Origin: a virus
Reading direction: 5' to 3' (one strand)
DNA: 64,000 nt
IMG/VR virus record: IMGVR_UViG_3300025120_014381
Span: 1-64,000 of that record
The notes under the pieces were generated by a model, which had not been told where the DNA came from, did no database searches, and was given only the letters and a program-made list of their open reading frames with translations. The position numbers were made by a program, and so were the translations under genes. Shown one piece after another: positions 32,262-51,447 of the stretch; position 1 is the stretch's first letter, and each line of letters begins with the position of its first letter.

Positions 32262-32687
32262 TTAATTATCAACTAATTTTATAACTGTGACATTACATTC
32301 GTTCAATATATCAACGCCAGACATGTCTGGTTTATAATCATTAATGTACAACACCTGTTCTATTCCAGAGTTAACAATACATTTTGCACAGACAGGACAA
32401 GGAGCGTGAGTTAGATACATCTTTTTTGGTTTAGGGTTGTTAAAGTCACATTTAATTAATGCATTAACCTCTGCGTGTATAAAACCACTTTTGCCTGTCT
32501 CCAGAGAATCCCTGCAGTTTGGTCCTCCTTTCTGGTCGCCATTATAACCTAACGCTAGTACTTGTGTATTGTCATTAGTAACAATGACTGCGCCTACTTG
32601 AAATTTCGGATCAGGAGAGCGTTTTGCAATATCTAAGGCAAATCTTTGCCAGATACTGTTCCACTCCGGTCTATCGTTTACTTTCAT
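32262..32687 (-). CDS. dCMP deaminase (ComEB family)
   Basis: RS.D...QVGAVIV, GYNG, HAEVNA, PCPVCAK. Confidence 0.92.
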   Translation of the reverse strand: MKVNDRPEWNSIWQRFALDIAKRSPDPKFQVGAVIVTNDNTQVLALGYNGDQKGGPNCRDSLETGKSGFIHAEVNALIKCDFNNPKPKKMYLTHAPCPVCAKCIVNSGIEQVLYINDYKPDMSGVDILNECNVTVIKLVDN

Positions 32688-32823
32688 TTTTTTCACAAAT
32701 AATTCTTCTCATGATTGTCTTCGCGGTGGCATAATTGTAGCAAGGAATAACGTCGTCTTCAGAAATAACAACTTCATATTTACCATAAAACTTAATAGAA
32801 TCTCTTATGTATGGATATATCAT
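32671..32823 (-). CDS. 50-aa hypothetical protein (below ORF-track cutoff)
   Basis: Manual translation MIYPYIRDSIKFYGKYEVV...KR*; fills the gap between DHH and deaminase genes. Confidence 0.5.
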   Translation of the reverse strand: MIYPYIRDSIKFYGKYEVVISEDDVIPCYNYATAKTIMRRIICEKNESKR

Positions 32824-32826
32824 AGT

Positions 32827-33663
32827 TTAAACTTTGTCAAAAAGATCTTCGATATTGAAATCTCCAGGCAGTACAAACCCAGCTGCTTTTTTATGTCCAC
32901 CACCACCATATTCTTTAGAAACTTCAGAGACGTCAATCTTATCGTGGAAAGCACGAAGACTAACTTTTATAATTTTTTCGTTATGATCGTAGTACCAGAT
33001 CATTGCAAAGTCACAGTCAGGTGCCAATCGTGCACCTATTTCAGACATCCAATGAGAAGAGTTAACAACTAAAACGTTTTTACTATTTATTTTCCTAGCA
33101 GCAGCTTTGTCACACACTTTCTTAACTACAGTTTTTGAATAAGCTAATATATAGCTGCCTCTTTTAACAGCATCATCAAACACAGAATCATCCTCAAACT
33201 TTTCAAATTCTTCAAAGTCGTGAGGCACCATGTCAAACGCCGCGCTGAATTCTTTTGAATAAGGTAGTTCCCAACGCCATAAGTCTCTATCTGTAATATA
33301 CTGGATAAACTTTGGTGACTCTTTACCTGGGTGGAAAAATTCCCAAGACAATGTTGCACCAGACTTATTCATATCAAATATTGTATTTGATATATCATGC
33401 AATTCGACAACTGCTGACTTGTGATGATCAATAACTAAAAGTTCGTTTGCATCTTTAATCATTTGTTTTGTTGTCGCATTATTAAAAGAAAAGTCTAGTA
33501 TAACAACATTCTTTCCTTTTACGTCAGGGGGATTAGTTCCGTGCTTGCAAGCGTAGTACTCAGCACGATTACCTAATAGTTTCCAAGCTGAATAAGCTGA
33601 TCCGAAACCATCAGTGCAATCGGCATGATATATTACAACGTTAACACTCGAAGGTTCTAACAT
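32827..33663 (-). CDS. DHH/DHHA1 phosphoesterase
   Basis: YHADCTDG, IDHH, SLR, GGGGHKKAAGF. Confidence 0.9.
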   Translation of the reverse strand: MLEPSSVNVVIYHADCTDGFGSAYSAWKLLGNRAEYYACKHGTNPPDVKGKNVVILDFSFNNATTKQMIKDANELLVIDHHKSAVVELHDISNTIFDMNKSGATLSWEFFHPGKESPKFIQYITDRDLWRWELPYSKEFSAAFDMVPHDFEEFEKFEDDSVFDDAVKRGSYILAYSKTVVKKVCDKAAARKINSKNVLVVNSSHWMSEIGARLAPDCDFAMIWYYDHNEKIIKVSLRAFHDKIDVSEVSKEYGGGGHKKAAGFVLPGDFNIEDLFDKV

Positions 33664-33676
33664 ACGTCTCTCCTAA

Positions 33677-34258
33677 TTACTCACGCATATAATTATGATG
33701 TTCTTGACATCTTGGTTCGTAAAGTTCTGCACCACCTACTTGAATTTGTTCTACTGATGGATCAGATTCAAAAGGTTCTACTTGTTTTACATTTGATTTT
33801 ATGTATGTGTATCTTGCATCTTTTTGGCAAACGCTGCATACAGACTTACACTTTATTATTCTTGTACAAAAAGGCATTAGGTCTTTGACTTCTTTAAAAG
33901 GCTCTCCGGCAAAAGACAGGTCTATTGAAGATACTACCACGTCATATCCTTTCTTGTATAAGGTTAAACATGCGGCGGCGCCACCCTCAATTAAAAATAA
34001 TTCGTCTATCAAAACGCAATCAACCTCTTTTTGCTCTGCAATCTTTTTAATTATCTCTTCACCAGTAGAAACTAAATGCGCTGGAATTTTATTGAAGTTA
34101 TGTGTAACTATCTCGCCAACTTGCGAGTATCTATCATCAAGGCTAGACTTGAATGCGATAACCTTCTGCTTTTGATAGTATCTTTTGTCAGCTTGCATCA
34201 ACAACTTTGTTGTTTTTGAACTAAACATAGGGCCGGTGTATAGTATTAAATCAGCCAT
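33677..34258 (-). CDS. tdk: Thymidine kinase (type II)
   Basis: GPMFSSKTT, IDE, CSVC, VGG.ELYEPRC..H. Confidence 0.9.
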   Translation of the reverse strand: MADLILYTGPMFSSKTTKLLMQADKRYYQKQKVIAFKSSLDDRYSQVGEIVTHNFNKIPAHLVSTGEEIIKKIAEQKEVDCVLIDELFLIEGGAAACLTLYKKGYDVVVSSIDLSFAGEPFKEVKDLMPFCTRIIKCKSVCSVCQKDARYTYIKSNVKQVEPFESDPSVEQIQVGGAELYEPRCQEHHNYMRE

Positions 34259-35261
34259 CTCTCAGTCCCCACCACTGGATTGTGAGCTCTAAACCTTCCC
34301 AAAATTTTACTAGAGGTTCATAGCCAAAATCATTCTTAGCTTTAGAGACGTCTGCTTGTGTGTGCATGACGTCGCCTGGGCGCCAATCAGCATGTCTAAT
34401 CGTGCTATTGAATTCTGAGACGAAATAATCCAACACCTCTTTATTGGAGACCTTGTTGTTACACGCGATATTATAACAGTCTCCAGCAAAAGGACCTTTA
34501 GCATTTGCTGATAAAATGTTTGCTGAAACTACATTATCAATATAACACATATCGCGTGTCTGGCTTCCGTCTCCATCAGAACGACACTCAAGATTGTTTT
34601 TAGTTGCGTGACACCAAGCAGAAACGGCTGTTGAATATGGGCTGTCTCCGTACTGACCTGGCCCAAAAACATTAAAATATCTCAAGCAAACAATATCAAG
34701 CTTGTACAAGTGCCAGCACATCTTTGCAAATTCTTCTATCGATGACTTTTGCCATGCATAAGGTGACTTAGGATCTTTAGAAGCAGTTTCTTTTGTCGGT
34801 AGTTCAATGGCACCTCCATAAACAGAAGAGGAGGAGGCCCAAACAATCCTATCAACAGCACCACTGGCTGCCTCAAATAGTTTTACTGTTTTTGCTATGT
34901 TAACTTCTGTAGTATACCAAGGTTGTTCAACTGAGTAACTGACTCTTGGTACTGCTGCCTGGTGAAAAATAACATCGTAACATCCTTGATATACAGCATT
35001 CAACACATTATCGTCCGCAAAATCATCTTGTATCACTAACACTTCATCACTTTTTCTTTTTTGATCTTCAGGGATTTGCATCATGTAAATTGTATAAAAT
35101 GAGCCGTTTGGTAAAACTCTAATATTTACCCCTTCCAACAATTCTAAATGGCCGTTTGACATGTCATCAACAATGTCAACTTGCCAACCTTGTTTTACCA
35201 GCTCTTTTGTGAGGTTGCTTCCAATAAAACCACAACCTCCTGTCACTAGTGCTTTTTTCAT
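34251..35261 (-). CDS. NAD-dependent NDP-sugar epimerase/dehydratase (extended SDR)
   Basis: TGGCGFIGS, HQAA, SSSSVYG, YAWQK, RYFNVFGP. Confidence 0.92.
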   Translation of the reverse strand: MKKALVTGGCGFIGSNLTKELVKQGWQVDIVDDMSNGHLELLEGVNIRVLPNGSFYTIYMMQIPEDQKRKSDEVLVIQDDFADDNVLNAVYQGCYDVIFHQAAVPRVSYSVEQPWYTTEVNIAKTVKLFEAASGAVDRIVWASSSSVYGGAIELPTKETASKDPKSPYAWQKSSIEEFAKMCWHLYKLDIVCLRYFNVFGPGQYGDSPYSTAVSAWCHATKNNLECRSDGDGSQTRDMCYIDNVVSANILSANAKGPFAGDCYNIACNNKVSNKEVLDYFVSEFNSTIRHADWRPGDVMHTQADVSKAKNDFGYEPLVKFWEGLELTIQWWGLRDG

Positions 35262-35281
35262 ATAAACTCCTTAACATAGAT

Positions 35282-35310
35282 ATTATATCTTACAATATTG
35301 AGATTTATAA
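35282..35310 (-). promoter_or_regulatory. Promoter TTATAA-N17-TATAAT
   Basis: Variant of the recurrent motif upstream of the epimerase. Confidence 0.5.
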
Positions 35311-35856
35311 TACTACTTCAATATCACTTGTGTCTATATCGAATTCATTGAATATTACATCTTGGCCGCCTAATTCTTTAATTTCCATGAGAAACCAAAA
35401 GCCTGCGATGTTTCCCTCTAACTCTTCAACAATATTTGCAACAGCAACGGCAGTACCTCCCGTTGCTAGCACATCATCAACAATCAAAACGTTATCTTCA
35501 CGCGTAATATCTTCTTCATGAATTTCTATCGTAGCTGATCCATATTCTAACTTATAAGTTTGGTGTGCAGTTTTGCGTGGTAGCTTTCCTGCTTTCCTTG
35601 CTAGCACCATAGGTAAACCGGTTTCATATGCGAGAATTGTTCCAAAAAGAAAACCTCGTGAATCTATCGCTACAATCTTATTAACCATACCTTCACGTTT
35701 AATTTTTCTAACGTAATGCGTCATTAAGTTTCTAAACTCTGTCTGATCTTGAAAAAGAGGTGTGATATCTTTAAACGTCACGTTCTTTTTTGGAAAATCA
35801 GGTACATCAATAATTAATTTTTTAATTCTTTCTAACATGAATTTGTGTTCACTCAT
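35305..35856 (-). CDS. apt: Adenine phosphoribosyltransferase
   Basis: PDFPK..V.FKDITP, SRGF, RKAGKLP, LEYG, VDDVLATGGT; start revised to 35856. Confidence 0.92.
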   Translation of the reverse strand: MSEHKFMLERIKKLIIDVPDFPKKNVTFKDITPLFQDQTEFRNLMTHYVRKIKREGMVNKIVAIDSRGFLFGTILAYETGLPMVLARKAGKLPRKTAHQTYKLEYGSATIEIHEEDITREDNVLIVDDVLATGGTAVAVANIVEELEGNIAGFWFLMEIKELGGQDVIFNEFDIDTSDIEVVL

Positions 35857-36316
35857 TTTTTCTTTCCTTCCATATGTCATTTTTATTTTTTCTTTCAAAA
35901 AAGCTAACATTGACTTTTTTCTCTTCATCATTAAGCGTGTAAGATGCAATTAATCCAGCATGACTAATTACACTTAAGTTAGTTATAACAAACTTTCCAC
36001 AGCTAATTTCTATTATCTCGCCTATATTGATCGGATAACCAAAGGCAGTTGTGAAAAATGTATTTTTGTTTATTTCAATTAGTGTGCTTGTTTTCTCTTC
36101 GTATCTAAATAGTCTTCTTTTATCATAGTGGCGTTTTCTTAGTGTCTTCCACCTAAACGAACTACTAATTGATGATTCCATTTTAGGAAATGCTTGTTTA
36201 AAGATATGTTTTCTCCTTTGGCAACCGTGACTAGGAGGTCCCCAAATGACATAGTCAGGAAAACAAATTTCATCTTTAAGAAAAATGCATTCAAAAATAT
36301 TTTTATCTTTTATCAT
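35849..36316 (-). CDS. Hypothetical protein
   Basis: ORF track; ATGA overlap with the upstream gene at 36316. Confidence 0.55.
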   Translation of the reverse strand: MIKDKNIFECIFLKDEICFPDYVIWGPPSHGCQRRKHIFKQAFPKMESSISSSFRWKTLRKRHYDKRRLFRYEEKTSTLIEINKNTFFTTAFGYPINIGEIIEISCGKFVITNLSVISHAGLIASYTLNDEEKKVNVSFFERKNKNDIWKERKNE

Positions 36317-37233
36317 ATAACATGTCCTGAGCCTACCGTGAATTCCATTTTGCAATAATTACCTTCACGGTCACATTTAAAATACCTAAATACTTCTGCT
36401 GTTAAATACTTCAGGAAGTTTAGATCGTAATGCACTGTATCTTTTGCATTAGAAGACCGTAGGTAAAAACGTGCATCCATGTGATCGTCGCGGATTAAAA
36501 AGTGACATGTGGCAATGCAACTACTGTCTGTGTATATGAAGCGACGTGAGTTTATTGTTTCTTTGCGTTCGTAAGGATTTTTTCCTGCTAGCTCGTCTTT
36601 GATTGTTTTAAATACTGAGGCCTCGATTCTTTCGTAATAATCTTTCTCTTTTTCATAAACTAACATTTCTTCGTTAATGTCAGAAAAATCACCTGTGTCA
36701 TAGTGCACAAAGTTAAAACCCACTACCTCTTGTAATTGGTTTGCAGATGATGTACCTAGTGTTTGCAACATAGCGTCCCGCAGATGATGCGCAGAGTTTC
36801 TTTCGAATGATCGATACTGGTTAACCAGGCTTTTAACGAGAGGTTCATCCACAACACTTCTTATTATAGTTACGTTGGCGTGGTACTGGAATTCTTCTAC
36901 AGCTTCAGAGAAAAGATTATGTAGTTTACGCAGACTAGCAAGATTTTGAATTGGGTCGCCACGCTTTGAAAATCTATCAACAATAACCTCCCAGTCAGGC
37001 AAGCAAATAATTAGCTGGTTGTTAAGATTAAACAGTTCACGTTTTAATTGTTCAACGTGGTTGAAAGTATTTCGGCCATAGTATTTTGCATGGATCAGCA
37101 TAGACAAAGCTGATCGATCTTGGATGTTCCATTGATAATTTGATTGTTCGTGTATCATCTCGTATAAAGTTGTTTTTCCGGAACAATCAGGACCTTCAAT
37201 AAAAATGTAATTAATTGGTGTTGAGTAACTCAT
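36313..37233 (-). CDS. dNMP (thymidylate-type) kinase fused to a minimal thymidylate-synthase-like domain
   Basis: IEGPDCSGKTT and DR motif; C-terminal SC-x19-RSSN...HYD...VGSGHV matches ThyA core spacing. Confidence 0.8.
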   Translation of the reverse strand: MSYSTPINYIFIEGPDCSGKTTLYEMIHEQSNYQWNIQDRSALSMLIHAKYYGRNTFNHVEQLKRELFNLNNQLIICLPDWEVIVDRFSKRGDPIQNLASLRKLHNLFSEAVEEFQYHANVTIIRSVVDEPLVKSLVNQYRSFERNSAHHLRDAMLQTLGTSSANQLQEVVGFNFVHYDTGDFSDINEEMLVYEKEKDYYERIEASVFKTIKDELAGKNPYERKETINSRRFIYTDSSCIATCHFLIRDDHMDARFYLRSSNAKDTVHYDLNFLKYLTAEVFRYFKCDREGNYCKMEFTVGSGHVI

Positions 37234-37462
37234 CTTCTATTTCCTCTATTTTTGCAATAAATAAGTTTTCGTGTTCTTTGATTTTTCCGTTATAAAAGAC
37301 AGAATAAAAATTGTTTCTAAGTTTAAGTGGATTTCTTTTTACGACAATACCGTAAGCGTGATCAAATCCGGCTTTGTCATGGAAGGGAACTACACAAAGC
37401 TCGCCTATCTCAAATTTTTTATCTTCAGGTGTTGTAAATATATTCATGTCAATCTGTGACAA
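37211..37462 (-). CDS. Small SH3/KOW-like hypothetical protein
   Basis: FEIGELC...GIVV...YSVFY. Confidence 0.55.
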   Translation of the reverse strand: MSQIDMNIFTTPEDKKFEIGELCVVPFHDKAGFDHAYGIVVKRNPLKLRNNFYSVFYNGKIKEHENLFIAKIEEIEDELLNTN

Positions 37463-40400
37463 GAGGTCTTACTTTTGCTACACTTGTTGATGCACCCCAG
37501 TTTGGATCATTAGAAGCTTGCACTAACCAGATTGAATATGGCACCATGGATGACGGTTTATTACCCCACATTCTTAACCAACCTGTGTTATTTTCATAAT
37601 CAGTAATCTTGAGTCGATAAAACGTCTTCTTATTCTTAGTTGTCTTTTTAATCATTTCAACGATACAACACCAAGCAATACCTTTTTCGCCCGGCTCCAT
37701 ATTTAATACAGACTTAACGTTAGCACTTTTAATCTTTTCCATCATATCATCAGGGAATGCTAAATCATCACGAGTTGCTGAACACAAGTCCTGATACATT
37801 GTCAGTTTGTCAATTCGACCCCAGTCCTCAATGTCTTTAGTTTGTTCGATCAAGATAGGCAACATTTCAGGAGCATTTTCTTTCTTTGCCTTGCGCATTG
37901 TCATACCCCACTTGCTTTTCTTTAATGCGTTGTAATTCTCAATGATAATATTATAAAGCTGATTGTGATTATCAATAGTGCCGTCCCACATCTCTTGTAG
38001 TCCGTTAAATGCTTCGACTTTGCATAGTGAAGCAAATCCTGTTTTATTGAGTTTAGAATGGCGCCATTTACCTGTTTCATCAAATAATATATCAGCAACT
38101 GATTCATATGGTCTATTTTGCATGATTTCAACAACAGCAGTTTTACCTACACCCTTAATGGAAGTTAAAGGAGGAATAAATGCTTTTTTATTGTCTGACC
38201 ATTGCCAATACGTACCTGATTCATTTACATCCGGTAATTCAATACGATAACCCATTTCTTTAATTTCAGCAATTGCTTTTGATAATGCATTTGGGTTATT
38301 GTTTTCAGATTCAAGAATCGTCCCCAACCAATCAGTTTCATAGTATGTGTGAAGCCAAGCAGCGTAATAAGAGCCAATGGCGTAAGCAACAGCATGTGAT
38401 TTATTAAAGCCATACACAGAGAAGAATTCAATACGTTCCCACAGCTCTTGTGAGATATGCTCAGGTACTCCATTGATTTCTTTTGCACCGTTGACAAATC
38501 TTGAGCGCGCTTCTTCACGCTCACCACCTTTATTACCCATGGTATCAAGCGACTTCTTAACTAATGTTTTGCGGAGTTTATCTGACTCAGCAGGTGTAAA
38601 GCCACCAAGTTTCTGTGCAAGAAGCATAAATTGTTCTTGGAAAGTTACGTGACCAAATGTGGGGCCGAGTATTTCTTTAATAATAGGATGTGCATAATGT
38701 ATTTCATCAGAGCGAAGCTTGTCTTTAACATACTTCTTATGAACATTGGCGCGTAGAGGACCAGGTCGATATATCGCGGTCAATGCTGCGAGTTCGATAA
38801 TTGTTGTTGGTTTAGCATCCTCACAGAATCGACGCGCGCCTTCAGCAGTGAATTGGAATACACCGGTCTTGCGACGTTGATGATAAACATGTTTCCAAAC
38901 TGTATCATCATCTTGCTCGACATAGCGACAATTAAGGTGCTTGTCAAACCAATCACGTATTTCGAGAAAGGTAGGTTCAGTGCCCGTTTCACGAGTGATA
39001 ATGCGCTTGATACAGTTTTCTACGTCTTTAAGGAGTGTTAGCCCAAGAAAGTCAAACTTAATAAAACCGTTATCCTCAAGATTACGAAAGTTCATCCCTT
39101 CAGTCCAAGGGGTTTGCAGTTCACCACGTACACCAATAATGGGCATTGATTGTTCTAGTGCTTCAGGAGGGCCAATAATAACACCACCCGCATGGCGACC
39201 AATAGATCTATTTTGCATAAAGAGTGCTTCGATATGATCCTTCACTTTTGGATACTTTTCCATAAACTCGCGATAACCTTTTGAATAATTCATACAGTCT
39301 TCATGTTTGAGAACAAATACAGACTTCTCGGTATTTTCATCACGAGCCTGGGACATTACATCGTCTTGCAGTGGACCAGTCATTTTGTTTACTTCAGCAA
39401 AATCAACTTCATAGAACTTAGCAATATCCTTTACTAGTGACTTTAACTTAAGTGTGTTAAAGTTGGATACTGGGATTACAGCCTGATCACCGTATAGTTC
39501 ACGTGCTGCATCAATCAAGGCATCACGATTACCAGCATCAGAATCAATGTCCGGCCAAGACGTACGATGGCGCCCAAGAAATCGTTCCCATAGCAAGTCG
39601 TATTTAAGTGGGTCGACTTGGGTGATACCTAACAAGTAGTTTACAAGTGAACCGCCACCAGAACCGCGTGCAGGACCAAACAGTGTATGATCTGCTGCTT
39701 TGTGAAACACTTCATACATTACTAGGAAGTAGTTTTCGAACCCGAGGTATTTAATGTCATCGAGTTCGTGCTTCGCCCGGGCAACGTATTCGGTATTGGT
39801 ATGAAGTCCTTCTTTAATGAGCGCTGCTTTGACCTTTTTTGCAAGTTGTTGAAAAGCAGTTTCGTTAGGCTTATTGAAATCGGGAAGCTTAACGCTAGTA
39901 TCAATCCAACAATCTTCACACTTTTCCCACGCAATGTCATGGGTGATTTCAATTGATCGTTTAATCTTTTCTTCATAGCCCTGGTAAGTATCTTTGTACT
40001 CGTCATAATGACGCGTAAATTCATTCCACATCTGACTAGCGTTTTTCGGGTATAATTCACACTTTAAGTCTTCAAACTCTGGTAGTGGAGAGGGATCGTT
40101 ACCCATCCAACCTAGTTTTTTGTAAAGCTCGCGAGCTTCCCACTTATCCGGTGAATAGTAATGAGAATCAGGTGTAGCAATTAACTGCAATCCTGTTGCA
40201 TCTGAATGCCGAAGTAGATGGTGATTTACTAAATGTTGTTGCTTAAGACGATTAAACTGTATTTCTAGATAGAAATTATCTTCACCAACTGCATCAACAA
40301 ATCGATCAGATAAATACATTAACTCCTGCTGGATTTTTTCATCACCTAGTTTTAGTGCATTACCACGCATAATTCTATTTGAAAAGATACCGCCTAGACA

Positions 40401-40967: not shown

Positions 40968-40997
40968 GTAGAAAAACTCCTTGTTGTATTTTGTTTT

Positions 40998-41026
40998 ATT
41001 ATACACTAAGGAGTTTAAGATTACAC
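40998..41026 (-). promoter_or_regulatory. Promoter GTGTAA-N17-TATAAT upstream of dnaE
   Basis: Exact match to recurrent motif. Confidence 0.75.
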
Positions 41027-41036
41027 TTTTCAATAT

Positions 41037-42695: not shown

Positions 42696-45545
42696 ATGAA
42701 TAAAAAAAGTTTAAGTCGCGGCGATCTAAGAAAAATTTTAATCGAAGCATTGGAAGTTTATTCAGAAGAAAAAAACCCAGGATTTGAAAGAAATAGTCGA
42801 CATCGGGAAGCAATATCACTACTCAAAACAAGAAAGAAGAATGTGACTGATGTCTATTTTCTAGATGCAATTAAGAAAGAAGGGATAAAAACTTCTATTA
42901 ATCTAGATAACTATTTTTTCTGGAGTCAGAATCGTTCATTTTGGAGCTCATTGTCTAGCTTTGACGAATTAAAAATTGGTGAGTCTGGTATTAATTTAGG
43001 TATCAGCAAAAGCACAGATCCTTATATGTATCAAAAAATTGGTGCAAATAAATACAGAGTAGTTGCAGGACCGAAACCTGAACAAATGGGTTTTGAATTT
43101 ACAAAAATGCCAAAATCAGACCCTTCACCGAGCAAAAATATACAGAAAAAAGACGTGCCAAAAGAAGATTTGATCAAACATGAGTATACAATAGGAAATA
43201 CAGGTGTTGCAAATGCCGTGAAAGGTACTAAAATGATCAAAAGGGTAAAAGGAGACATTTCAAGAAAAATAGTCATGACCTATTTAATGCCCGATTCTTT
43301 AAAAGCGATGGAAATTCAGTCTAGAGTGCCACCAAAACCATTTAAAAAAGTTGATGATAAAAAAGAAATTGGTGAAGTTGTTAAAGAATTTGAGAGGCTT
43401 ACCGGCAATAAAATACCTTTTGACATAGGCGCTGGTAAAGAAAAGATTGTATCTAAATTATCAGGTAAGAAGTTACCTCCAAGCGAATTCATAAACACTT
43501 TTGGTCCAATAATTAAAAATTCGGTGGGGACGTCAGGCGTTTTTCCTTCTGTGACATTAGCTCAAGCAATCTTAGAAACAGGGTGGGGAAGATCAACTGT
43601 GGGTGATGCAAATAATATGTTTGGCATCAAAGCAAAAGGCAAAAAAACACAGTATTGGCAAGGTGATTCAACAGTCAGTAAAACAACTGAATATATTAAA
43701 GGTAAAAAAGGCAGCTATAACCTAGGCTTTCGAAAATACAGATCAATTGAAGACAGTATCAAAGACCATAATTTGCTTTTACAAAAATCTCGCTATAAAA
43801 AAGCGATTAATGCTGTTACACCTGAAGAACAAGTAAAAGAAATTAAAGCAGCAGGTTACGCAACTGATCCTAAATATGCTGAAAAGTTAATAAGCCTTAT
43901 TAACAAATACGATTTAAAACAATTTGATAGTGAAGTTGCAGCATTGAAGGCATCACAAAAAAGTGACGCGTCAAGATTAGCAGAAAACAAAAATAGGAGA
44001 AAAGGCGAAATGATTATGACAGAAGAAAAAATAAGGTTAATGGTTAGAAATTTACTTCTTAATGAAATCTCAGGACAGGACAAAGAACATGTAAAATTTG
44101 TTCAACGAGTAATTGGCACAAAAGATGATGGTGACTGGGGTGACAATACTAATGATGCGTGGATACGTTGGGTTGAAGAACATGTAGATGTCCTCGAGAA
44201 GATGGCTGAAGATGCATCGTTAACAAAAAAGAATATTTTAGATATTAAAGCTGACGCTGCGGAAATTGCAGCCGTGATACTTGGCGAGAAATCAAAAGAA
44301 AATTTAGCAGGTGTTAAAGAACTTGTGAAAAAGTACTTGGATATTGTAAACACAGTAAAGTCAAAATTCAATACTGGCGATAAATATGAGTTTGTCCGGG
44401 GGCCAATAAACGGCTTGTACCGAGGTGGTTTACAAGGTATGAAAAACAATTATATAAAATTTTATTACAATGATATCGCGATTGCATTCGATATTAAAAC
44501 TGGTGAAATAAAGCAAAGAAAACGCGGGGAACAAAAACCTTTTGGGTTTGGACAAGGCAAAAAATTAAAAGAACATGTCCAAACAAATGTATTGAAAGAA
44601 AACTTTATTAACCCAGCTAAAATATACATGGATCTAAAAGCAGGGGACAAAATTGCTAATAATTCTGTGTACAACGCTATTGTCGTCGATGTCGGGCCCA
44701 TTCAGTTCGAGGATGCTTTAGATGATGGTTTGGAAAATTATAAAAAAAATCAATCAAAAGAAAAAGGCCAGCTTGTTGGAGAAGTCGAAGTTGTGGGCGA
44801 AGATATCGTTTACAACAATTTAGTATTTCGATCTGTGCCTAGTCCAAAAATTGTAGCGAAGGCTAAACAGTTGTACAATAGTTTTCGCGCAGCGCCTAAA
44901 GATCAAGAGTCCCTAAATAAATGGAGAGAAGAGAACATTTACGGTGCTTACGATAAAAAATATTTAAAAAGTACTTATACTAATAGAGGTAAAATAAGTG
45001 GTTTTGCATCAACTGAGCAGAGTGCATGGAGCTCTTGGTTTTTAAATATATGTGCGCTAGAAGATCCTGTTTTTAGTTCACAGATTAATAGTGGAAAACT
45101 TTGGGTTGGTTATCCTATTAATTCTGCTACAAATTCTGACAAATTAGGTCTTTTTGATTTGCAGAAGAAAGTCATGGAAAACCCAAATGAATATAAAGGT
45201 AAAACTGTCTGGATACCTTTTGATATTAGTATCGGTGTTCCTGTCGTTCCTGGAGATATGATATCTACTCCTAGAAGCGGAGGAAATCACATGAGAATTT
45301 TTGTTGATTCGAATGGAACAGTAATGGGAGGAAATGAAGGATATCACCCAAAATATAAAGGTCCAAAAGGAAAAAGGGTAAAAGTTGAAGGATCACCCGA
45401 GGGAGGTGGCATGGGTAAAGGATCAGTAAAATTAAATGACCTAGGTACACCGGTGCCAGGACAATCGTATGCACGAGGACATACCTACAAACACATATTA
45501 AAAAAAGTTTATATAGTCGGGGCTAAAGACAGAAACTTTTCATAA
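42696..45545 (+). CDS. Multidomain (probably virion-associated) peptidoglycan hydrolase: GH73/FlgJ-like glucosaminidase, PG-binding-like motif, C-terminal DUF2272/CHAP-like region
   Basis: AQAILETGWG, NNMFGIKA, FRKY, GYATDPKY; QRVIGTKDDGDWG; AWSSWF...H....GGNE; N-terminal leader. Confidence 0.8.
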   Translation: MNKKSLSRGDLRKILIEALEVYSEEKNPGFERNSRHREAISLLKTRKKNVTDVYFLDAIKKEGIKTSINLDNYFFWSQNRSFWSSLSSFDELKIGESGINLGISKSTDPYMYQKIGANKYRVVAGPKPEQMGFEFTKMPKSDPSPSKNIQKKDVPKEDLIKHEYTIGNTGVANAVKGTKMIKRVKGDISRKIVMTYLMPDSLKAMEIQSRVPPKPFKKVDDKKEIGEVVKEFERLTGNKIPFDIGAGKEKIVSKLSGKKLPPSEFINTFGPIIKNSVGTSGVFPSVTLAQAILETGWGRSTVGDANNMFGIKAKGKKTQYWQGDSTVSKTTEYIKGKKGSYNLGFRKYRSIEDSIKDHNLLLQKSRYKKAINAVTPEEQVKEIKAAGYATDPKYAEKLISLINKYDLKQFDSEVAALKASQKSDASRLAENKNRRKGEMIMTEEKIRLMVRNLLLNEISGQDKEHVKFVQRVIGTKDDGDWGDNTNDAWIRWVEEHVDVLEKMAEDASLTKKNILDIKADAAEIAAVILGEKSKENLAGVKELVKKYLDIVNTVKSKFNTGDKYEFVRGPINGLYRGGLQGMKNNYIKFYYNDIAIAFDIKTGEIKQRKRGEQKPFGFGQGKKLKEHVQTNVLKENFINPAKIYMDLKAGDKIANNSVYNAIVVDVGPIQFEDALDDGLENYKKNQSKEKGQLVGEVEVVGEDIVYNNLVFRSVPSPKIVAKAKQLYNSFRAAPKDQESLNKWREENIYGAYDKKYLKSTYTNRGKISGFASTEQSAWSSWFLNICALEDPVFSSQINSGKLWVGYPINSATNSDKLGLFDLQKKVMENPNEYKGKTVWIPFDISIGVPVVPGDMISTPRSGGNHMRIFVDSNGTVMGGNEGYHPKYKGPKGKRVKVEGSPEGGGMGKGSVKLNDLGTPVPGQSYARGHTYKHILKKVYIVGAKDRNFS

Positions 45546-45596: not shown

Positions 45597-46046
45597 CTAT
45601 TCTATTTCACCTTGATATCGCATTTCAACTAGTTGACTAGAACCTACACAATCACTCAGGTAGTTGTCTAACTGTTTTAGCGATGTGCAGACTGCTTCAC
45701 CACTTGCTGCTAGCATGAGATTAAATTGTGCACCTGGTGGAAGACCATCACAGAAATATACAATAGGTTTTTCCAAACAATTCATATAACCTGCCTCAAA
45801 AATACTTCCCATATCTTTATTGCGTGTATTGCACAACATCCAGTCACATTCGTGCAAGTGTTGAATGTTTCCTTTAAAGATCTGGTCTTGCATTGATTCT
45901 TCAGCATCATTATCACAAAGATTTTCATCCTTAGGTGAAAAATAAGAAATACCATGCTTTTCAAAAACTGCCTTAATATTTTCTACTTCTTCCATCCATT
46001 CTGGTGAAAACCAACCACTAGCTAAATAAACTTTTCCTAAACTCAT
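45597..46046 (-). CDS. Nucleoside 2-deoxyribosyltransferase / dNMP N-glycosidase family protein
   Basis: VYLASGWF, SP, D.GSIFEAGY, KPIV, NLML. Confidence 0.85.
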   Translation of the reverse strand: MSLGKVYLASGWFSPEWMEEVENIKAVFEKHGISYFSPKDENLCDNDAEESMQDQIFKGNIQHLHECDWMLCNTRNKDMGSIFEAGYMNCLEKPIVYFCDGLPPGAQFNLMLAASGEAVCTSLKQLDNYLSDCVGSSQLVEMRYQGEIE

Positions 46047-46047: not shown

Positions 46048-47034
46048 TTATTTTCTCCCCATAAATTGATTATATTGATATTTTAATTGTGCAATATCTT
46101 CGTATGTTTCGTCCCAAAGTTGTTCAAATATTGTTGGTGCGTCTGGTGGGTGTGTACCATTAATATCCTCACGTCGAGACTGGTAAATTGTATCGTTAGG
46201 ATGATACTCAAACTTATCATTCTTAGGTTCTGGCCAGTACAGATTTGTACCTCGTGATGTTTCGCCACCTTTACCATCAGGCACACGGAATGTTTTAATA
46301 TAATGCATATCTGGCTTGTTAAAGTCAATTCTTGCAGATGCTTCTGGCAACACCTTTAAAACTTCTCGCGCCATATAAGCTGCAAGAAGATTATCAGCTG
46401 CAGGTTGAATTTGCATATCTTGGCGTTGCGCGATGAAACCTAGTAAATCTTTAAGATTAAGACGCATTAGATAGAATGATGTCATTGCTTTTGGAAGAAT
46501 CATTCTAGCATCCATCATAGACACTACTTTTGAATCTGTCATATCTGAATAAAGCTGTTTTGACTCTCGTACGATCTTTTTATATCTCGCCAAAAATTCA
46601 GGTGAATTCTGGACGGCTTCTGGAATTACTGCCGGATCATCTCGTAAGTCACGATCGCCTGTGCATTGTGCAGCAAAAGAACCTGCTCGGTGCCTAATGA
46701 TATGCGTCACTTCTTGAAATGATAAACCGGAAAGCTTAAAGGTAAAGCCTAAACATTCCATTGGTGTTGGAAGCGCACGAAAACAGAGGACGTCCTCAAG
46801 ATTTGCAGATAACTCTTTCAGTGATGCTGTTGCTGGGTTTGTTTCGTCATGATGATCTGCCCATGTTGCCTTCACATATTGCCAAGCGACGTTCAAGGCT
46901 TGTGAACGTGTTGGTGCGTCGATCAATTCAACTTTTAAATGAGCTAAGTTGTTAAAGAATTCTGTTCTTGGTTCTTGACCGAACTTTAATTCCATTGGTA
47001 AATCGACAGGTTTTAAATCTAAATTTTGTGGCAT
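46048..47034 (-). CDS. Divergent flavin-dependent thymidylate synthase (ThyX-like)
   Basis: HIIRHRAGSFAAQC, DARMILP, NLKDL..F...R. Confidence 0.8.
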   Translation of the reverse strand: MPQNLDLKPVDLPMELKFGQEPRTEFFNNLAHLKVELIDAPTRSQALNVAWQYVKATWADHHDETNPATASLKELSANLEDVLCFRALPTPMECLGFTFKLSGLSFQEVTHIIRHRAGSFAAQCTGDRDLRDDPAVIPEAVQNSPEFLARYKKIVRESKQLYSDMTDSKVVSMMDARMILPKAMTSFYLMRLNLKDLLGFIAQRQDMQIQPAADNLLAAYMAREVLKVLPEASARIDFNKPDMHYIKTFRVPDGKGGETSRGTNLYWPEPKNDKFEYHPNDTIYQSRREDINGTHPPDAPTIFEQLWDETYEDIAQLKYQYNQFMGRK

Positions 47035-47378: not shown

Positions 47379-47416
47379 GGTTTTTCCTTTGTTGGGTTGT
47401 ATTGTTGTATATTAAT

Positions 47417-48412: not shown

Positions 48413-48437
48413 TAGCGCCTCGTCATATAAATACATA

Positions 48438-49382
48438 TCAACTAATTGCTTTAATTTCAAACAAAACTTTCATTGCTTGATGGTAGCTGCTGAAGTGATA
48501 TATACTTTCGTGACTTAAATCTTCATTATAAGATTTTAAAGGTACTAAACACTTAATTCCGTGTTTGGCGTAATCCTCAGCATGTTTTGGCGCGTCATCT
48601 ATTGCAAACTTAATTTTACCTTCGTCATAGTACTTTGATTTTGCGCACCACCTAAACTTTTCAGGTGAGAATGAGATAGCATCACAAGGAATATTTTGTT
48701 GGTGTATCCAAAAATATGTATCATATAGACATTGCAGTTCTTCTTCAGGGCGTGCTGTTAAAAGATGAATCCAATAGCCTTTATGTTTTAATTGCCACAG
48801 AAGTTCTAAGTTATCAGTATCTATAGTTAGATTCGCAAACCCTTCGTCGTCAAGAAACATTTTAAATACATACTCAGAATTTAAATTAATTTTTGAGAGT
48901 GCTGTGATAAAGTAATACTCTTTAGAGTCTACATCAGCTCGGACTCCAAATTTTTTATACAGCCAATCAGAAAAGCCAACTCTAAAATTAGCTAACACGT
49001 CATCGATATCCACGATAGCGACAGGTTGACCTTCCCACTTTTTCTGTTGTAAGCTGTGGTGCTTGTTAAGATAAACATCTTTTTTCTCAAAGGCTTTTTC
49101 AAATTCTTTTGATGTAATGCCCCAAGTGTTTAACGTTGCCATCATGTAACGGATAACGTCGACCGTTTCATATAAAACTGTTGATCTATTTGCTAGGGGT
49201 TCAGTGTGTGAATGATGATTTTTATATTGGGTTGCGTTAACTAGTGCACTTAGTTCTGCATGGGCACACAAAACGTTATCTTGTGTTATCTTTTCTTTTA
49301 GTTCTTGGGATAATTGATCACTTCTTCCGACAATTTTTTTATTATATTGTAATTGTTGTAATAGCATCTGTTTGAATGTCAA
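48438..49382 (-). CDS. All-alpha NTP-pyrophosphatase-like domain fused to HAD 5'-nucleotidase-like domain
   Basis: N-terminal AEL...YETVDV; C-terminal VDIDDVLANF, LTAR, K, AIDD. Confidence 0.75.
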   Translation of the reverse strand: MTFKQMLLQQLQYNKKIVGRSDQLSQELKEKITQDNVLCAHAELSALVNATQYKNHHSHTEPLANRSTVLYETVDVIRYMMATLNTWGITSKEFEKAFEKKDVYLNKHHSLQQKKWEGQPVAIVDIDDVLANFRVGFSDWLYKKFGVRADVDSKEYYFITALSKINLNSEYVFKMFLDDEGFANLTIDTDNLELLWQLKHKGYWIHLLTARPEEELQCLYDTYFWIHQQNIPCDAISFSPEKFRWCAKSKYYDEGKIKFAIDDAPKHAEDYAKHGIKCLVPLKSYNEDLSHESIYHFSSYHQAMKVLFEIKAIS

Positions 49383-49614
49383 AGGTCACCTCAGTATCAG
49401 GTTGTGTTGTTACATGTTTTTTAAATGTATCTACATAATACTGAAATTCTTTGGAATTTACATTACTAAACAGAAACATTGTGTTGCCTGCATTTATAGA
49501 ACCTGAAAATGACCCGTGAGAATCAACTTGTGTCTTAATTTCATCAAAAGACAAGTTTGTTTTTTCTCCGTTAAAAATGACATTTGAATCCATTATTTTC
49601 CTCTCAGTAGCCAC
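49342..49614 (-). CDS. Hypothetical protein
   Basis: ORF track. Confidence 0.55.
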   Translation of the reverse strand: MATERKIMDSNVIFNGEKTNLSFDEIKTQVDSHGSFSGSINAGNTMFLFSNVNSKEFQYYVDTFKKHVTTQPDTEVTFDIQTDAITTITI

Positions 49615-49984
49615 TTAAAAGACGCTGCCTAATCTTAGTATCCTTTTTTAAATATGCATCAAACAATTCTTTTTCATTAAATCCTGTCACTATTAACATT
49701 GCAAAGAAATAGTTTAAAGCATCTACAACTTCTTCTAGAAACTCTCCACGATCCAACGCTTGTTCAACGTTCGTTACACGATGAGGTTTCCAGTTCTTTA
49801 AATGTTGCAATGCTTCAAACATTTCTTCGACGCCCTTTAAAGCAAGGTCGCGGCAGACTTGTTGTGATTCTTTTTCAGCAATGTCAACAGGAAAGTCTGG
49901 GTAAGAACCCGGGATTGTTTCTTTCATCATTTTCATAAAAGAAAGGCGCAATTTAAACATTTCTTCAAGTCTACAGTTTTCCAC
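49604..49984 (-). CDS. All-alpha dUTPase/dCTPase (MazG-like superfamily)
   Basis: EEMFEA..H..NWKPH, LEEVVDA.NY. Confidence 0.8.
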   Translation of the reverse strand: MENCRLEEMFKLRLSFMKMMKETIPGSYPDFPVDIAEKESQQVCRDLALKGVEEMFEALQHLKNWKPHRVTNVEQALDRGEFLEEVVDALNYFFAMLIVTGFNEKELFDAYLKKDTKIRQRLLSGY

Positions 49985-49986
49985 GA

Positions 49987-50211
49987 TTACTCTCCTTCTG
50001 TTTTTAACTCAGAAGCTTCTTGTAACATTTTTTCAATGTTCTGCTCTTGACTTTTTTCGTATTCTTCGTTCAAGAATAGCTCGCCTTCATCTAGCGCTAA
50101 TCTTACCATTCTAAAGTGGTCAACAATGTCTGTCCCAGTTAAAAGACCTAGTTGTAGAATTTTGACAAAGTGTGCAATAACACTATCATTTAATTTAACG
50201 TTGTTGTTCAT
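49987..50211 (-). CDS. Small hypothetical protein
   Basis: LQLGLLTGTDIVDHFR; GGAGAG RBS. Confidence 0.65.
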   Translation of the reverse strand: MNNNVKLNDSVIAHFVKILQLGLLTGTDIVDHFRMVRLALDEGELFLNEEYEKSQEQNIEKMLQEASELKTEGE

Positions 50212-50219
50212 ATTCTCTC

Positions 50220-51026
50220 CTATTTTTGAACAGCCGGCACCCAGTGTGTAGTTCGTTTATCAAGCGTTTGTTCTTTGATAATTTCATTACCACAAGGTGA
50301 GGTTTTTTGATTATACACAGCGAAACGCTGACTGTACAAACCTTTTTTGCCGTTAGGCTTTCTATAGTTTTGTATTGTTGCACCTCCTGTACTATACGAC
50401 AGTTGTATTATTCGTCTACATGCATAGAATAGTTTGTTAGACTCATCAGTTGTGATATGTGCACACAATCGGTGTGGTGATATCTTTGCGTCATAAAGAC
50501 ATTCTGCTTTAAGGTAGTTTCCGATACCGCTTACATTTTTTTGATTCATTAAAAATTCTGCAATTGTTTTGTTAGGCTTCTTTTTTAAAAGAATATAAAA
50601 TGTATCAGGACCCCACGCATCTTTAAGAAAGTCTGGCCCTATTGACTTGAGCTTTTTAGCTAAGTCTTTTTTATTAAGTGCTATTTTAAAAGTACCAAAA
50701 TTTCTCATATCATTATAATACAAGGATAGTGATTCGTCTTCAAACTCTAGTTTGAGCCTAGAGTGGTTTGTTGTATTGTTCGACCACATTCCTGTCATTC
50801 CCAGTGTATTAAAGAAGTATACGTCGTCTTTGAATGAAAAGTATATAAACTTCCCCTTACATTCGACATGTTCCAGCAACAAGGGGAATCGCCAACTTGG
50901 GTTATTGACGTTATCAATTGGTTTCTTAGTATATCTTCCAGATAACACTGTCAGTCTTTTAAGTACTTTTCCTTCATATGATTTTAAAAAGTCTACTGTT
51001 GTTTTTACTTCGGGTCCTTCAGGCAT
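50220..51026 (-). CDS. Fpg/Nei family DNA glycosylase with zincless finger
   Basis: Start revised to 51026 MPEGPEV; GKF, LGMTG, DMRNFG, H2TH GIGNY; C-terminal RTTHWVPAVQ lacks the CxxC pairs. Confidence 0.92.
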   Translation of the reverse strand: MPEGPEVKTTVDFLKSYEGKVLKRLTVLSGRYTKKPIDNVNNPSWRFPLLLEHVECKGKFIYFSFKDDVYFFNTLGMTGMWSNNTTNHSRLKLEFEDESLSLYYNDMRNFGTFKIALNKKDLAKKLKSIGPDFLKDAWGPDTFYILLKKKPNKTIAEFLMNQKNVSGIGNYLKAECLYDAKISPHRLCAHITTDESNKLFYACRRIIQLSYSTGGATIQNYRKPNGKKGLYSQRFAVYNQKTSPCGNEIIKEQTLDKRTTHWVPAVQK

Positions 51027-51447
51027 GTGTTTCCTCCAGCCAAGATTTATAATTTTTAAGTGCACTATCTGTTGGAATGACTTCTCGCCATTCTCCCTTA
51101 ACAAAGATTCGATACGCGTCTGACCCATATTTTCCAATACCATACAATTTAGTTGGGTCATCTTTCCAGTCTTTTTCGAGGTAATCAATTGACATCTGTT
51201 TTAAAGCGCGGGTACGTCTGTCTACCAAACCCAAAGGTTGTATTAAAGACTTTAAAGCATGCTCATCTAACTTTGATGCATCTTCAGGTGTAGGCCAATT
51301 TTTTAAAAAATCCCAGAAATATGGTTCAGATGAGCGCCGCTTTGTTAAATTACAAAATATGCAGCAAACAAAGATCCTCCACGGATCTTTGTTTAATTCT
51401 TCTTGTAAAAGTGCATAAGGTGACATGTGTATCTTCTTTTTTATCAT
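51019..51447 (-). CDS. MBD4-like HhH mismatch DNA glycosylase (stand-alone catalytic domain)
   Basis: SPY.LLQE.L..DPW....CIF.N.T, PLGL, LYGIGKYGSDAYRIF, EW..V.P.D..L..Y..WL. Confidence 0.88.
   Translation of the reverse strand: MIKKKIHMSPYALLQEELNKDPWRIFVCCIFCNLTKRRSSEPYFWDFLKNWPTPEDASKLDEHALKSLIQPLGLVDRRTRALKQMSIDYLEKDWKDDPTKLYGIGKYGSDAYRIFVKGEWREVIPTDSALKNYKSWLEETHA

Follow-up and report, generated by a model that had tools for sequence, protein, structure and literature searches.

The stretch examined here is a 64,000-nucleotide window of viral DNA (bases 1-64000 of the 73,420-bp IMG/VR viral contig IMGVR_UViG_3300025120_014381), in which a block of nucleotide-metabolism genes surrounds the gene for a family C DNA polymerase, DnaE. 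CheckV puts the completeness of the contig at 27%, corresponding to a whole genome of roughly 270 kb, and the G+C content is about 36% along the whole window. We read the block as a module for nucleotide precursors and replication that belongs to a widespread, uncultured lineage of marine jumbo phages. Among its genes are a nucleotide kinase fused to a short domain resembling thymidylate synthase (TS), termed kinTSl for the fusion and mini-TS for the domain, and an atypical paralogue of ThyX, termed ThyXl. The genes of the block, together with a conserved gene at its upstream edge, are listed below with their lengths in amino acids (aa) where these matter.

32262-32696, minus strand: dCMP deaminase (PF00383 1.8e-21)
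32827-33663, minus strand: DHH/DHHA1 phosphoesterase, NrnA/RecJ-like (PF02272 6.5e-9, PF01368 3.9e-6)
33677-34258, minus strand: thymidine kinase, TK (PF00265 3.6e-36)
34251-35261, minus strand: SDR1, WbgU/WbpP-type UDP-hexose(NAc) 4-epimerase-like (PDB WbgU 2.2e-46, PF16363 3.5e-44)
35305-35856, minus strand: adenine phosphoribosyltransferase, APRT (NF002636 197.5 bits, cut-off 125)
36313-37233, minus strand: kinase and TS-like fusion, kinTSl
36313-36798, minus strand: mini-TS domain, fusion residues 146-306 (by fold and profile)
36799-37233, minus strand: YorR/Tmk-like P-loop nucleotide kinase domain, fusion residues 1-145
37449-41033, minus strand: DnaE, family C polymerase alpha subunit, 1194 aa (PF02811, PF07733, PF17657 and PF14579 over cut-offs)
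41628-42617, minus strand: SDR2, extended-SDR NDP-sugar epimerase/dehydratase-like (PF01370 1.6e-31; best PDB match Pal 6bwl 1.8e-16)
42696-45545, plus strand: glucosaminidase-domain protein, 949 aa (PF01832 3.8e-33)
45597-46046, minus strand: nucleoside 2-deoxyribosyltransferase (NDT) family protein (PF05014 1e-16, 61.6 bits, cut-off 28.8)
46048-47034, minus strand: ThyXl, atypical ThyX paralogue, 328 aa (Thy1 PF02511 5.9e-19)
48438-49382, minus strand: MazG-HAD fusion, 314 aa, an all-alpha NTP-PPase-like domain joined to an NT5C-like HAD domain
49604-49984, minus strand: MazG126, MazG-like all-alpha NTP pyrophosphohydrolase, 126 aa (phrog_12184 3.5e-14)
49987-50211, minus strand: u74, conserved 74-aa protein (no Pfam match)
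50220-51026, minus strand: Nei/Fpg glycosylase/lyase with H2TH, Fapy_DNA_glyco and C-terminal domains (NF002211 7.3e-45, below cut-off)
51019-51447, minus strand: stand-alone MBD4-like HhH-GPD glycosylase (PDB MBD4 domain 8.8e-34)
52433-53158, minus strand: u241, conserved 241-aa protein at the upstream edge of the block

All of the enzymes that a preliminary description of this locus had named are present, as judged by Pfam, NCBIfam and PDB-sequence matches. The single minus-strand block of that description holds for the listed enzymes, but the plus-strand glucosaminidase gene lies inside it. Its kinase-TS fusion stands as a YorR/Tmk-like kinase joined to a TS fold, but the TS part is truncated, at 161 aa, and lacks PF00303. 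Its MBD4-like glycosylase proved real over the full length of the protein. Its atypical ThyX is also real; it has an altered signature and is additional to a canonical ThyX. The domains of DnaE lie in the order PHP, DNA_pol3_alpha, finger and HHH_6, and the true start of Nei is MPEGPEV, 54 codons within the longest listed open reading frame (ORF).

A search with the ThyX-like gene returned 153 related viral stretches, from which 80 loci were retained (58-92% identity, contigs of up to 284 kb), and one further locus was added through the kinase-TS gene. Conservation was counted by tblastn of 27 window proteins against these 81 related loci, many of which are truncated by contig ends. ThyXl was matched in 80 loci, NDT in 78, MazG-HAD and MazG126 in 69 each, u74 in 64, SDR2 in 62, DnaE in 52, Nei in 46, kinTSl in 28, SDR1 in 27, the MBD4-like glycosylase in 19, TK in 18, the DHH phosphoesterase in 14, dCMP deaminase in 9, a protein termed u342 in 4 and APRT in 2. 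The u241 gene was found at 27 loci by tblastn and at 31 by clustering, and for this protein the protein Atlas gives viral hypothetical proteins only. The recurring order is u241, (MBD4-like), Nei, u74, MazG126, MazG-HAD, ThyX-like, NDT, SDR2 and DnaE, leading into kinase-miniTS, SDR1, TK, DHH and dCMP deaminase, with u74 invariably between Nei and MazG126 where it is present. The kinase-miniTS gene follows DnaE in all 22 loci whose sequence includes the C-terminus of DnaE and continues for 1300 nt or more beyond it. Because the same order is seen in 81 related loci, the gene arrangement is far beyond chance. The neighbourhood conservation that the preliminary description had proposed as a check is thereby borne out, and it extends to three unrelated viral lineages, as described below.

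Other genes are less constant. The glucosaminidase gene was matched in just 3 of the 81 loci and is an insert that lies outside the pathway; APRT, at its two loci, is an accessory gene. Variable inserts between the core genes include ClpP, DnaJ, VWA, HNH, ribonucleotide reductase (RNR) and IMPDH/GMP reductase genes, and a 168-aa ORF at 35849-36355, for which no homologue was found in the 81 loci, is probably not a gene. Outside the block, at 13749-14321 (minus strand), the window encodes a 190-aa protein without a Pfam match whose homologues lie within the nucleotide block of relatives (L007:6806-7363, L066:6045-6608); genes therefore evidently shuffle into and out of the module. In two other loci (L097 and L098, at about 2000-7350) the DnaE homologue is in two pieces, matching query residues 6-457 and 458-1154 and lying about 1.4 kb apart, which suggests an intein or a homing-endonuclease insertion.

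DNA of the window is held by 24 public runs from 18 studies, labelled marine or seawater and stored as assembled contigs, one of which contains 0.95 of the sampled words of window DNA and may derive from the source sample. Public metagenomes contain at least 1088 ThyXl clusters (90% identity), and the phage group is therefore abundant in the sea. Among cultured phages its proteins are scarcely represented. DnaE has less than 30% identity to every one of 50,697 GenBank phage records, the sole match of the whole kinTSl protein among GenBank phages is a kinase stretch in Pelagibacter phage HTVC119P, and three tblastn queries found no mini-TS member among them. Of the block proteins queried (DnaE, kinTSl, mini-TS and ThyXl), only ThyXl has a cultured homologue, which is in Geobacillus phage GR1.

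Pfam detects just a P-loop in the kinase-miniTS fusion, and we therefore give its assignment by fold and profile. In the AF2 model (pLDDT 92.8, pTM 0.88) residues 8-148 match YorR (3kb2) with a Z score of 13.4 and dTMP kinases with Z scores of 11-12 (VIA), the family profile finds YorR in the PDB at 1.8e-8, and the thymidylate kinase family phrog_761 is matched at 5.1e-10. With the mini-TS domain Foldseek places 9iqu, the dCMP hydroxylase AfhB of HY126, first at 8.2e-7 and 9iqc next at 4.9e-6, with a probability of 1.00. VIA ranks MilA (Z 12.1, 145 residues aligned, rmsd 3.6) beside AfhB 9iqu (Z 11.9, 148 aligned, rmsd 3.0), 9iqc (Z 11.6) and ThyA (Z about 10.7). Against PDB sequences the same family profile matches the dCMP hydroxymethylase gp42 of phage T4 at 0.0036 and AfhB at 0.073, and a profile comparison with a short TS homologue of another virus gave 87% probability and an E value of 4e-6. 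In addition, 21 of 30 feature matches in the protein Atlas were in the PF00303 set.

The active-site signature of the domain is of the dCMP type. In the HMMER alignment C239 corresponds to C148 of T4 gp42, the Arg-Ser pair to its Arg-Ser, D270 to D179, and the terminal SxH to GSLHVY or SAHVFE. E196, R230, R231, C239, R259, S260, D270, F273 and H304 do not vary among the 24 fusions, and in 18 of 18 stand-alone forms the catalytic Cys, Arg-Ser, Arg-Arg, Asp and His are likewise fixed; the Arg-Arg pair presumably corresponds to the nucleotide-binding R126 and R127 of ThyA. Asp270 lies at the position of N177 of the Escherichia coli enzyme in all 24 proteins, and Asn262 (in the motif RSSN) lies at the D169 position in the window protein. 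Near the L143 position the window protein has Asp236, three residues before C239, and its relatives have an acidic residue at -3 or -2, in a register set by sequence alignment alone.

The small size of the domain is its normal state. All 24 homologues are about 300 aa long and end 2-20 residues past an (N/G)S(A/G)H motif, and the window protein ends two residues past the conserved His304, so that the short TS-like part does not reflect a broken gene. ThyA chains (at least 264 aa) align over only about 142 residues, and the mini-TS is without the ThyA parts before about residue 58 and after His207. We take the missing N-terminal segment and C-terminal tail to be folate-binding parts of ThyA. 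In the profile alignment AfhB and the mini-TS share their point of termination. When the domain was searched for by profile, it gathered 422 clusters at 50% identity (E <= 0.001), 163 of them at E <= 1e-10; all of the 150 clusters listed are at most 337 aa long and most are kinase fusions of about 300 aa, while some are stand-alone proteins of 163-200 aa that retain the same invariant residues. In the lineage of the window the mini-TS is the only TS-superfamily member, and no ThyA was found in the five records searched (G000-G004).

Since the ORF ends in GSGHVI, where ThyA has GDxHxY, and is followed by a gap of 456 nt, we considered a group I intron or a frameshift after the TS-like domain. 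This was rejected, as 24 of 24 homologues end at the same point; moreover, Rfam found no intron, translation in three frames showed no continuation, and in the closest relative (L082) APRT follows directly. The 456-nt stretch itself (35857-36312, between kinase-miniTS and APRT) is absent from that relative and may be an insertion or a regulatory spacer.

ThyXl matches Thy1 (PF02511) with 69 bits against a cut-off of 24.8, whereas it reaches only 43.7 bits with the NCBIfam thyX equivalog TIGR02170, below the cut-off of 87.9. Its model is of moderate quality (pLDDT 73.8), with a poorly modelled C-terminal extension of about 90 aa that is nevertheless conserved in sequence. Foldseek places the PolB UMP/dUMP methylase (4p5b) first at 2.9e-9, then the atypical ThyX of Corynebacterium glutamicum (3fnn, 3ge9), then ThyX of Mycobacterium tuberculosis and Thermotoga maritima, over a range of 2.9e-9 to 1e-6 and with TM scores by target of 0.6-0.7. 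Thus, ThyXl is like ThyX in its fold, its RHR triplet and its ARxxLP segment, and unlike it in its signature, which reads RHRAGSFAAQCTGDR in 27 of 27 proteins where the canonical form is RHRxxSxxExSxRY. The stretch VTHxIRHRAGSFAAQCTGDRDLR is conserved, and A121-R131 are invariant in 27 of 27. Where the T. maritima enzyme has E86, R90 and Y91, in the numbering that we assume for it, ThyXl has Ala, Gly and Asp, and we take the three replaced residues to be dUMP-binding.

A further difference from ordinary ThyX is that ThyXl coexists with a canonical copy. A canonical ThyX accompanies the atypical one in 4 of 4 larger relatives (G001-G004; E 1e-38 to 1e-52), and both forms occur in two distant lineages (G005 and G006). 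In 20 of the 81 loci the canonical gene lies about 3 kb upstream, beside ribonucleotide reductase (Thy1 1.1e-51 for a representative). In L085 the canonical motif reads RHRTWSYNEISRRY. Only 50 columns align in a profile comparison of ThyXl with the canonical ThyX of G003. As an extra copy in genomes that also have a canonical ThyX, ThyXl probably does not serve as their thymidylate synthase. The NDT gene lies 1 bp downstream of ThyXl. Its profile matches the N-deoxyribosyltransferase 6evs at 7.9e-13 and the dNMP hydrolase DNPH1 at just 0.53, and its E84, which we take to be the catalytic Glu, is invariant together with its C-terminal residues.

The remaining core enzymes hydrolyse nucleotides or excise bases, according to their families. 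MazG126 weakly resembles dimeric dUTPases and has invariant acidic residues (E54, E57, E84, E85 and D88) typical of MazG metal binding. The N-terminal domain of MazG-HAD matches the dUTPase 1w2y at 5.2e-4, with few acidic residues invariant, and its C-terminal domain matches 3bwv at 1.1e-4, is 5'(3')-deoxyribonucleotidase-like and has all HAD motifs invariant. The MBD4-like protein matches the MBD4 glycosylase domain across residues 9-141, and its GIGKYGSDAYRIF aligns with the MBD4 catalytic-loop stretch GIGKYGNDSYRIF, in which the catalytic Asp presumably lies. MBD4 acts on 5-substituted uracil opposite G.

The same gene set is found well beyond this lineage, since ThyX-like, NT5C-like HAD, kinase and mini-TS genes cluster again in three unrelated viral lineages (L101-L103). 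In L101 and L102 the order is a short TS homologue (with RSLE and GND, and ending in GSMHIFE), a ThyX-like protein of 350 or 326 aa (27% identity to ThyXl of the window, E 2e-15), a Rossmann protein, an NT5C-like HAD, a small kinase and the mini-TS. L102 (46% G+C, from a record that is 100% complete) adds a dCMP deaminase gene. In L103 (29% G+C) we find dCMP deaminase, a short TS homologue, a Rossmann protein, the mini-TS, HAD, kinase, a MazG126 homologue, a DnaE with 28% identity to that of the window, and a ThyX-like protein; the dCMP deaminase gene adjoins the mini-TS in both L102 and L103. In four further loci (L093-L096) a stand-alone mini-TS lies in a cluster that resembles the Afh cluster. 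One of these, L094, was scanned with Pfam and contains a Tmk-like kinase, a T4-gp42-like TS homologue (PF00303 8.1e-22), the mini-TS, a small HAD and a 511-aa NTP-transferase+APH protein, and its genome also has a true ThyA. Because it recurs in unrelated loci, the pair of mini-TS and kinase is a recurrent module that travels with ThyX-like, HAD, MazG and dCMP deaminase genes. Beside this module, or one gene from it, the three unrelated lineages also encode a 298-332 aa protein with an N-terminal GxGxxG and no Pfam match (L101:5740-6738, L102:5951-6949, L103:7112-8008), which may be a further flavin- or NAD-dependent component.

Two known systems are comparable with the block. The T4 system, in which dCTP is destroyed and dCMP is modified, consists of gp42 dCMP hydroxymethylase, gp1 dNMP kinase, gp56 dCTPase and the dCMP deaminase cd. 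The genes of the window would follow the same logic of destroying dCTP, modifying dCMP at C5 with an Asp-type TS homologue, phosphorylating the product and incorporating it, and gp42 (structures 1b49 and 1b5d) is the best sequence-profile match of the mini-TS. Unlike T4, the kinase is fused, and the mini-TS is apparently without the folate-binding regions of ThyA, to judge from its length and aligned ranges.

The second system is known from a 2026 study (PMC13326640), in which TS homologues with N177D, an acidic L143 position and D169N were shown to be flavin-binding, O2-dependent 5-hydroxy-dCMP synthases. According to the same study, the D169N signature, proposed as diagnostic, allowed the activity of nine more homologues to be predicted; an Asp at N177 favours dCMP, and the synthase genes adjoin those for a thymidylate-kinase-like kinase, a dCTPase, an HAD phosphatase, NDP-sugar enzymes and GT-B DNA glycosyltransferases. 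The synthases that we compared are RB69 gp48, DLP3 gp80, RL38J1 gp216 and HY126 AfhB (from that study and the PDB titles of 9iqu and 9iqc); gp78, the kinase beside the DLP3 synthase, is there also reported to have YorR 3kb2 as its best Foldseek match. The window protein resembles these synthases in its TS fold, its catalytic Cys, its Asp at N177, its Asn at D169 and, as far as the sequence alignment places it, the acidic residue near L143. The pathways are alike in that the mini-TS, as AfhB does, ends just past SxH, in the YorR/Tmk-like kinase partner, and in the all-alpha NTP pyrophosphatase, HAD phosphatase and NDP-sugar enzymes of the window genome. By contrast, the TS part of the window is only 161 aa long, lacks PF00303 and is kinase-fused, and 16 of 24 relatives have Asp at D169. 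An arabinose-5-phosphate isomerase, an AfhE-like enzyme and an adjacent glycosyltransferase are not present in the window, and its conserved core includes an atypical ThyX and NDT. The polymerase also differs, being DnaE in the window and a T4-type enzyme of family B in those phages.

The preliminary description had recognised the enzyme combination in no characterised pathway. That view is now partly out of date, as N177D/D169N TS homologues are flavin-dependent 5-hydroxy-dCMP synthases known beside kinase, dCTPase, HAD, NDP-sugar and glycosyltransferase genes (PMC13326640). Among the papers found on this combination only that one bears on it; term searches of PMC7824862, PMC8670742 and PMC8989533 found no description of it. 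Pre-replicative action of a TS homologue with a kinase and an NTP pyrophosphatase is a known general logic, established in T4 and in the 2025-2026 studies of 5-hydroxycytosine. The parts not found in the literature searched or in cultured phages are the kinase-fused TS core of about 160 aa, a ThyX that is probably not the thymidylate synthase, the NT5C-like HAD fusion, NDT and the linkage to DnaE.

Our best reading, for which we consider the chances evenly balanced, is that the block encodes a pre-replicative, cytosine-directed pathway of C5 modification, which would be a variant of the TS-homologue pathways. In such a pathway a MazG-like pyrophosphatase would turn dCTP, or another canonical dNTP, into its monophosphate. 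The mini-TS would bind dCMP through the Asp at the N177 position, and its invariant Cys would attack C6 and thereby activate C5. Its chemistry would probably depend on flavin rather than folate, since it is without the ThyA parts before about residue 58 and after His207 and ends where AfhB ends. In this phage the Asn at the D169 position would fit 5-hydroxy-dCMP as the product, although it could be another nucleotide. The fused kinase would phosphorylate the product to its diphosphate and a host NDP kinase would add the third phosphate, after which it would be incorporated by the adjacent DnaE. ThyXl, a flavoprotein fold whose dUMP signature is replaced, would probably be a flavin or one-carbon partner or catalyse a second pyrimidine-modifying step. 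The NT5C-like HAD fusion and NDT would probably clear or recycle canonical or unwanted deoxynucleotides, dTTP would come from dCMP deaminase and TK together with a canonical ThyX encoded elsewhere, and the MBD4-like and Nei glycosylases would handle deaminated or oxidised pyrimidines.

Four lines of evidence make a second pyrimidine-nucleotide pathway likelier than the supply of dTTP alone: the mini-TS does not vary in its catalytic residues; it is joined to a kinase and linked to the polymerase; a ThyX paralogue is retained in addition to the canonical enzyme; and the gene set re-assembles in unrelated viruses. The non-canonical pyrimidine of the preliminary description is partly supported, by a dCMP-type active site in the mini-TS, by the ThyX paralogue and by conservation. 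We regard as doubtful a more specific version of the cytosine pathway, in which mini-TS and ThyXl would form a two-protein flavin system. Here the mini-TS would provide Cys-activated dCMP and ThyXl the reactive flavin, as a hydroperoxide or an N5 one-carbon adduct; the product, a C5-modified dCMP (5-hydroxy or of an unseen kind), would be channelled by the kinase to a co-evolved DnaE, and cytosine would be wholly replaced in this marine jumbo lineage and in several unrelated lineages with DnaE or other polymerases. Sister phages that differ at D169, with Asp, Asn or Glu there, would on this view make different products. A complex prediction for ThyXl and mini-TS gave a score of 0.00 with a mark of 0.32 and counts neither way.

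Several observations weigh against cytosine modification by the mini-TS. The fold scores of AfhB, MilA and ThyA are tied to within about one Z unit and therefore do not separate the sub-family of the domain, and its sequence support, from the gp42 and AfhB profile matches given above, is marginal. PF00303 was absent at its gathering score from the window fusion, and no protein in G000-G004 exceeded that cut-off. The domain, at 161 aa, is much below the characterised TS-family enzymes in size (AfhB chains are 217-234 aa), and across the family 16 of 24 proteins have Asp at the D169 position, whereas 6 have Asn and 2 have Glu. The D169N signature was moreover defined on full-length homologues. 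In L093-L096 and L101-L103 the mini-TS accompanies a longer TS homologue, and it may therefore be accessory, rather than the primary C5 enzyme, in those lineages. Nei-family enzymes excise 5-hydroxycytosine, which would be awkward for DNA with unprotected 5-hydroxycytosine. Finally, TK, dCMP deaminase, ThyX and APRT would equally suit the supply of dTTP in a phage of 36% G+C.

The sugar decoration that the preliminary description had thought possible fared less well. The block contains no glycosyltransferase (GT), and a Pfam scan of 20 frequent neighbour clusters found none either. A search of five records for the Pfam families GT1, GT2 and GT1_4 found GT1 and GT2 genes in three (G002, G003 and G004), only at a distance of about 100 kb from the block, and none in G000 (27% complete) or G001 (70% complete), which likewise weighs against decoration. 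Where present they form clusters of two to three GT1 and two to three GT2 genes, at about 203-213 kb in G002, 125-149 kb in G003 and 154-172 kb in G004. SDR1 follows kinTSl in relatives and SDR2 is a generic extended SDR. Sugar decoration of the modified base is thus a weak suggestion of the gene content, although a later decoration step is possible. Apart from the block, the window encodes a eukaryotic-type phosphomannomutase-like HAD (14324-15118, minus strand; PF03332 5e-34) and, overlapping it, a cytidylyltransferase-like nucleotidyltransferase (15115-15567, minus strand; PF01467 4.5e-12), about 17 kb from the nearest block edge. This pair could give further sugar-activation capacity, and a homologue of the phosphomannomutase lies 6 kb upstream of ThyXl in one relative (L030).

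The strongest alternative, which we hold to be possible though clearly less probable than cytosine modification, is that the block is an ordinary module for dNTP supply, salvage and repair and that the phage DNA is canonical. The fusion would then be a dNMP kinase with a non-catalytic or regulatory TS-like domain that, for example, senses or channels dCMP or dTMP; ThyXl would be a second or specialised thymidylate (or UMP/dUMP) methylase; MazG, HAD and NDT would serve house-cleaning and salvage; and the SDRs would be auxiliary sugar genes directed at the host surface or at glycosylation of the virion. TK, dCMP deaminase, APRT, DHH, MazG, Nei and DnaE all suit nucleotide economy and replication, the block of relatives carries ribonucleotide reductase, canonical ThyX and IMPDH/GMP reductase, and the AT-rich genome makes a heavy demand for dTTP plausible. 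It also fits that ThyXl comes closest in fold to PolB and to an atypical ThyX described in its PDB title as dispensable for thymidylate synthesis, and that the GT clusters of relatives are distant from the block and polysaccharide-like, with GT1 and GT2 together. On the other hand, the TS-like catalytic residues, invariant in every fusion and stand-alone form compared, are hard to square with a mere binding domain, ThyXl is maintained at 58-92% identity over 80 loci beside a canonical ThyX, and the same unusual gene set clusters in three unrelated lineages.

The pathway might instead be directed at thymidine or uracil, with ThyXl as the key enzyme that makes a C5-modified dUMP and the mini-TS and kinase serving that nucleotide. 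For example, 5-hydroxymethyl-dUMP could arise by hydration, rather than reduction, of an exocyclic methylene intermediate, and then be incorporated and perhaps elaborated. This reading draws chiefly on Geobacillus phage GR1 (L083, OK896991.1, 16752-41693), in which a full-length ThyX-like protein with 47% identity to ThyXl is the only TS-type gene. It adjoins genes for DnaE (annotated as a PHP domain protein), an NDT-family protein, an HD-domain protein, a glycosyltransferase, a nitroreductase-like protein and a dUTPase, with amidoligase, gamma-glutamylcyclotransferase and TK genes about 11-13 kb downstream. The last three gene types are associated with thymidine hypermodification. The resemblance of the MazG-like domains to dimeric dUTPases points the same way. 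However, no mini-TS homologue was found within the 25 kb of GR1 examined, so GR1 may use a different scheme, and our literature search found no paper on this phage. ThyXl is without the residues aligned to the presumed dUMP-binding signature, and relatives retain a canonical ThyX and TK that would supply dTMP. An exocyclic methylene intermediate of ThyX is described in PMC8989533, and the 5-hmdUMP hypermodification treated there is likewise pre-replicative, a TS-family enzyme making a C5-modified pyrimidine nucleotide that is then incorporated; unlike the block, however, those pathways use a ThyA-type dUMP hydroxymethylase together with post-replicative DNA kinases and transferases, none of which was identified in the window. 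The Asp of the mini-TS at the N177 position in all 24 proteins favours dCMP according to PMC13326640. Overall, we consider a thymidine or uracil target improbable.

Nucleoside-antibiotic pathways pair a TS homologue with an N-glycosidase (MilA/MilB, BcmA/BcmB). ThyXl and NDT might likewise make a free modified pyrimidine base, used as a small molecule or swapped into nucleosides, so that the block would not be a DNA-modification pathway as such. Their genes, 1 bp apart, do both occur in 78-80 of the 81 loci, with the catalytic Glu and C-terminal residues of NDT invariant and MilA among the best fold matches of the mini-TS; but NDT matches deoxyribosyltransferases far better than dNMP N-hydrolases and the block is tied to DnaE, kinase and TK, hence to nucleotide use in replication, which makes this reading very unlikely.

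If cytosine is replaced in these phages, this would bear on the sequencing and quantification of marine viromes and on evasion of restriction and CRISPR. The cytosine pathway, if true, would also give the newly found 5-hydroxycytosine chemistry a wider reach, and the kinase-fused 160-aa TS core, together with a ThyX lacking thymidylate synthase function, would reveal how little a TS fold needs and how flavin chemistry came to be recruited twice.

Several further features of the window lie outside the block. A tmRNA at 2321-2708 (minus strand) matches Rfam RF00023 over its full length with 103 bits, and ARAGORN gives its tag peptide as ANNNSHFDSVAIAA. A two-component cassette at 8370-10566 (minus strand) consists of a YceI-like protein (10042-10566), a PAS histidine kinase (8804-10042) and a receiver domain (8370-8807). 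Also on the minus strand are genes for a sigma-70-type factor with clear regions 1.2, 2 and 3 and a weak region 4 (17314-18078), a GroEL-type chaperonin (19046-20644), a 5'-3' exonuclease (20855-21652) and an Fe/Mn superoxide dismutase (31302-31979).

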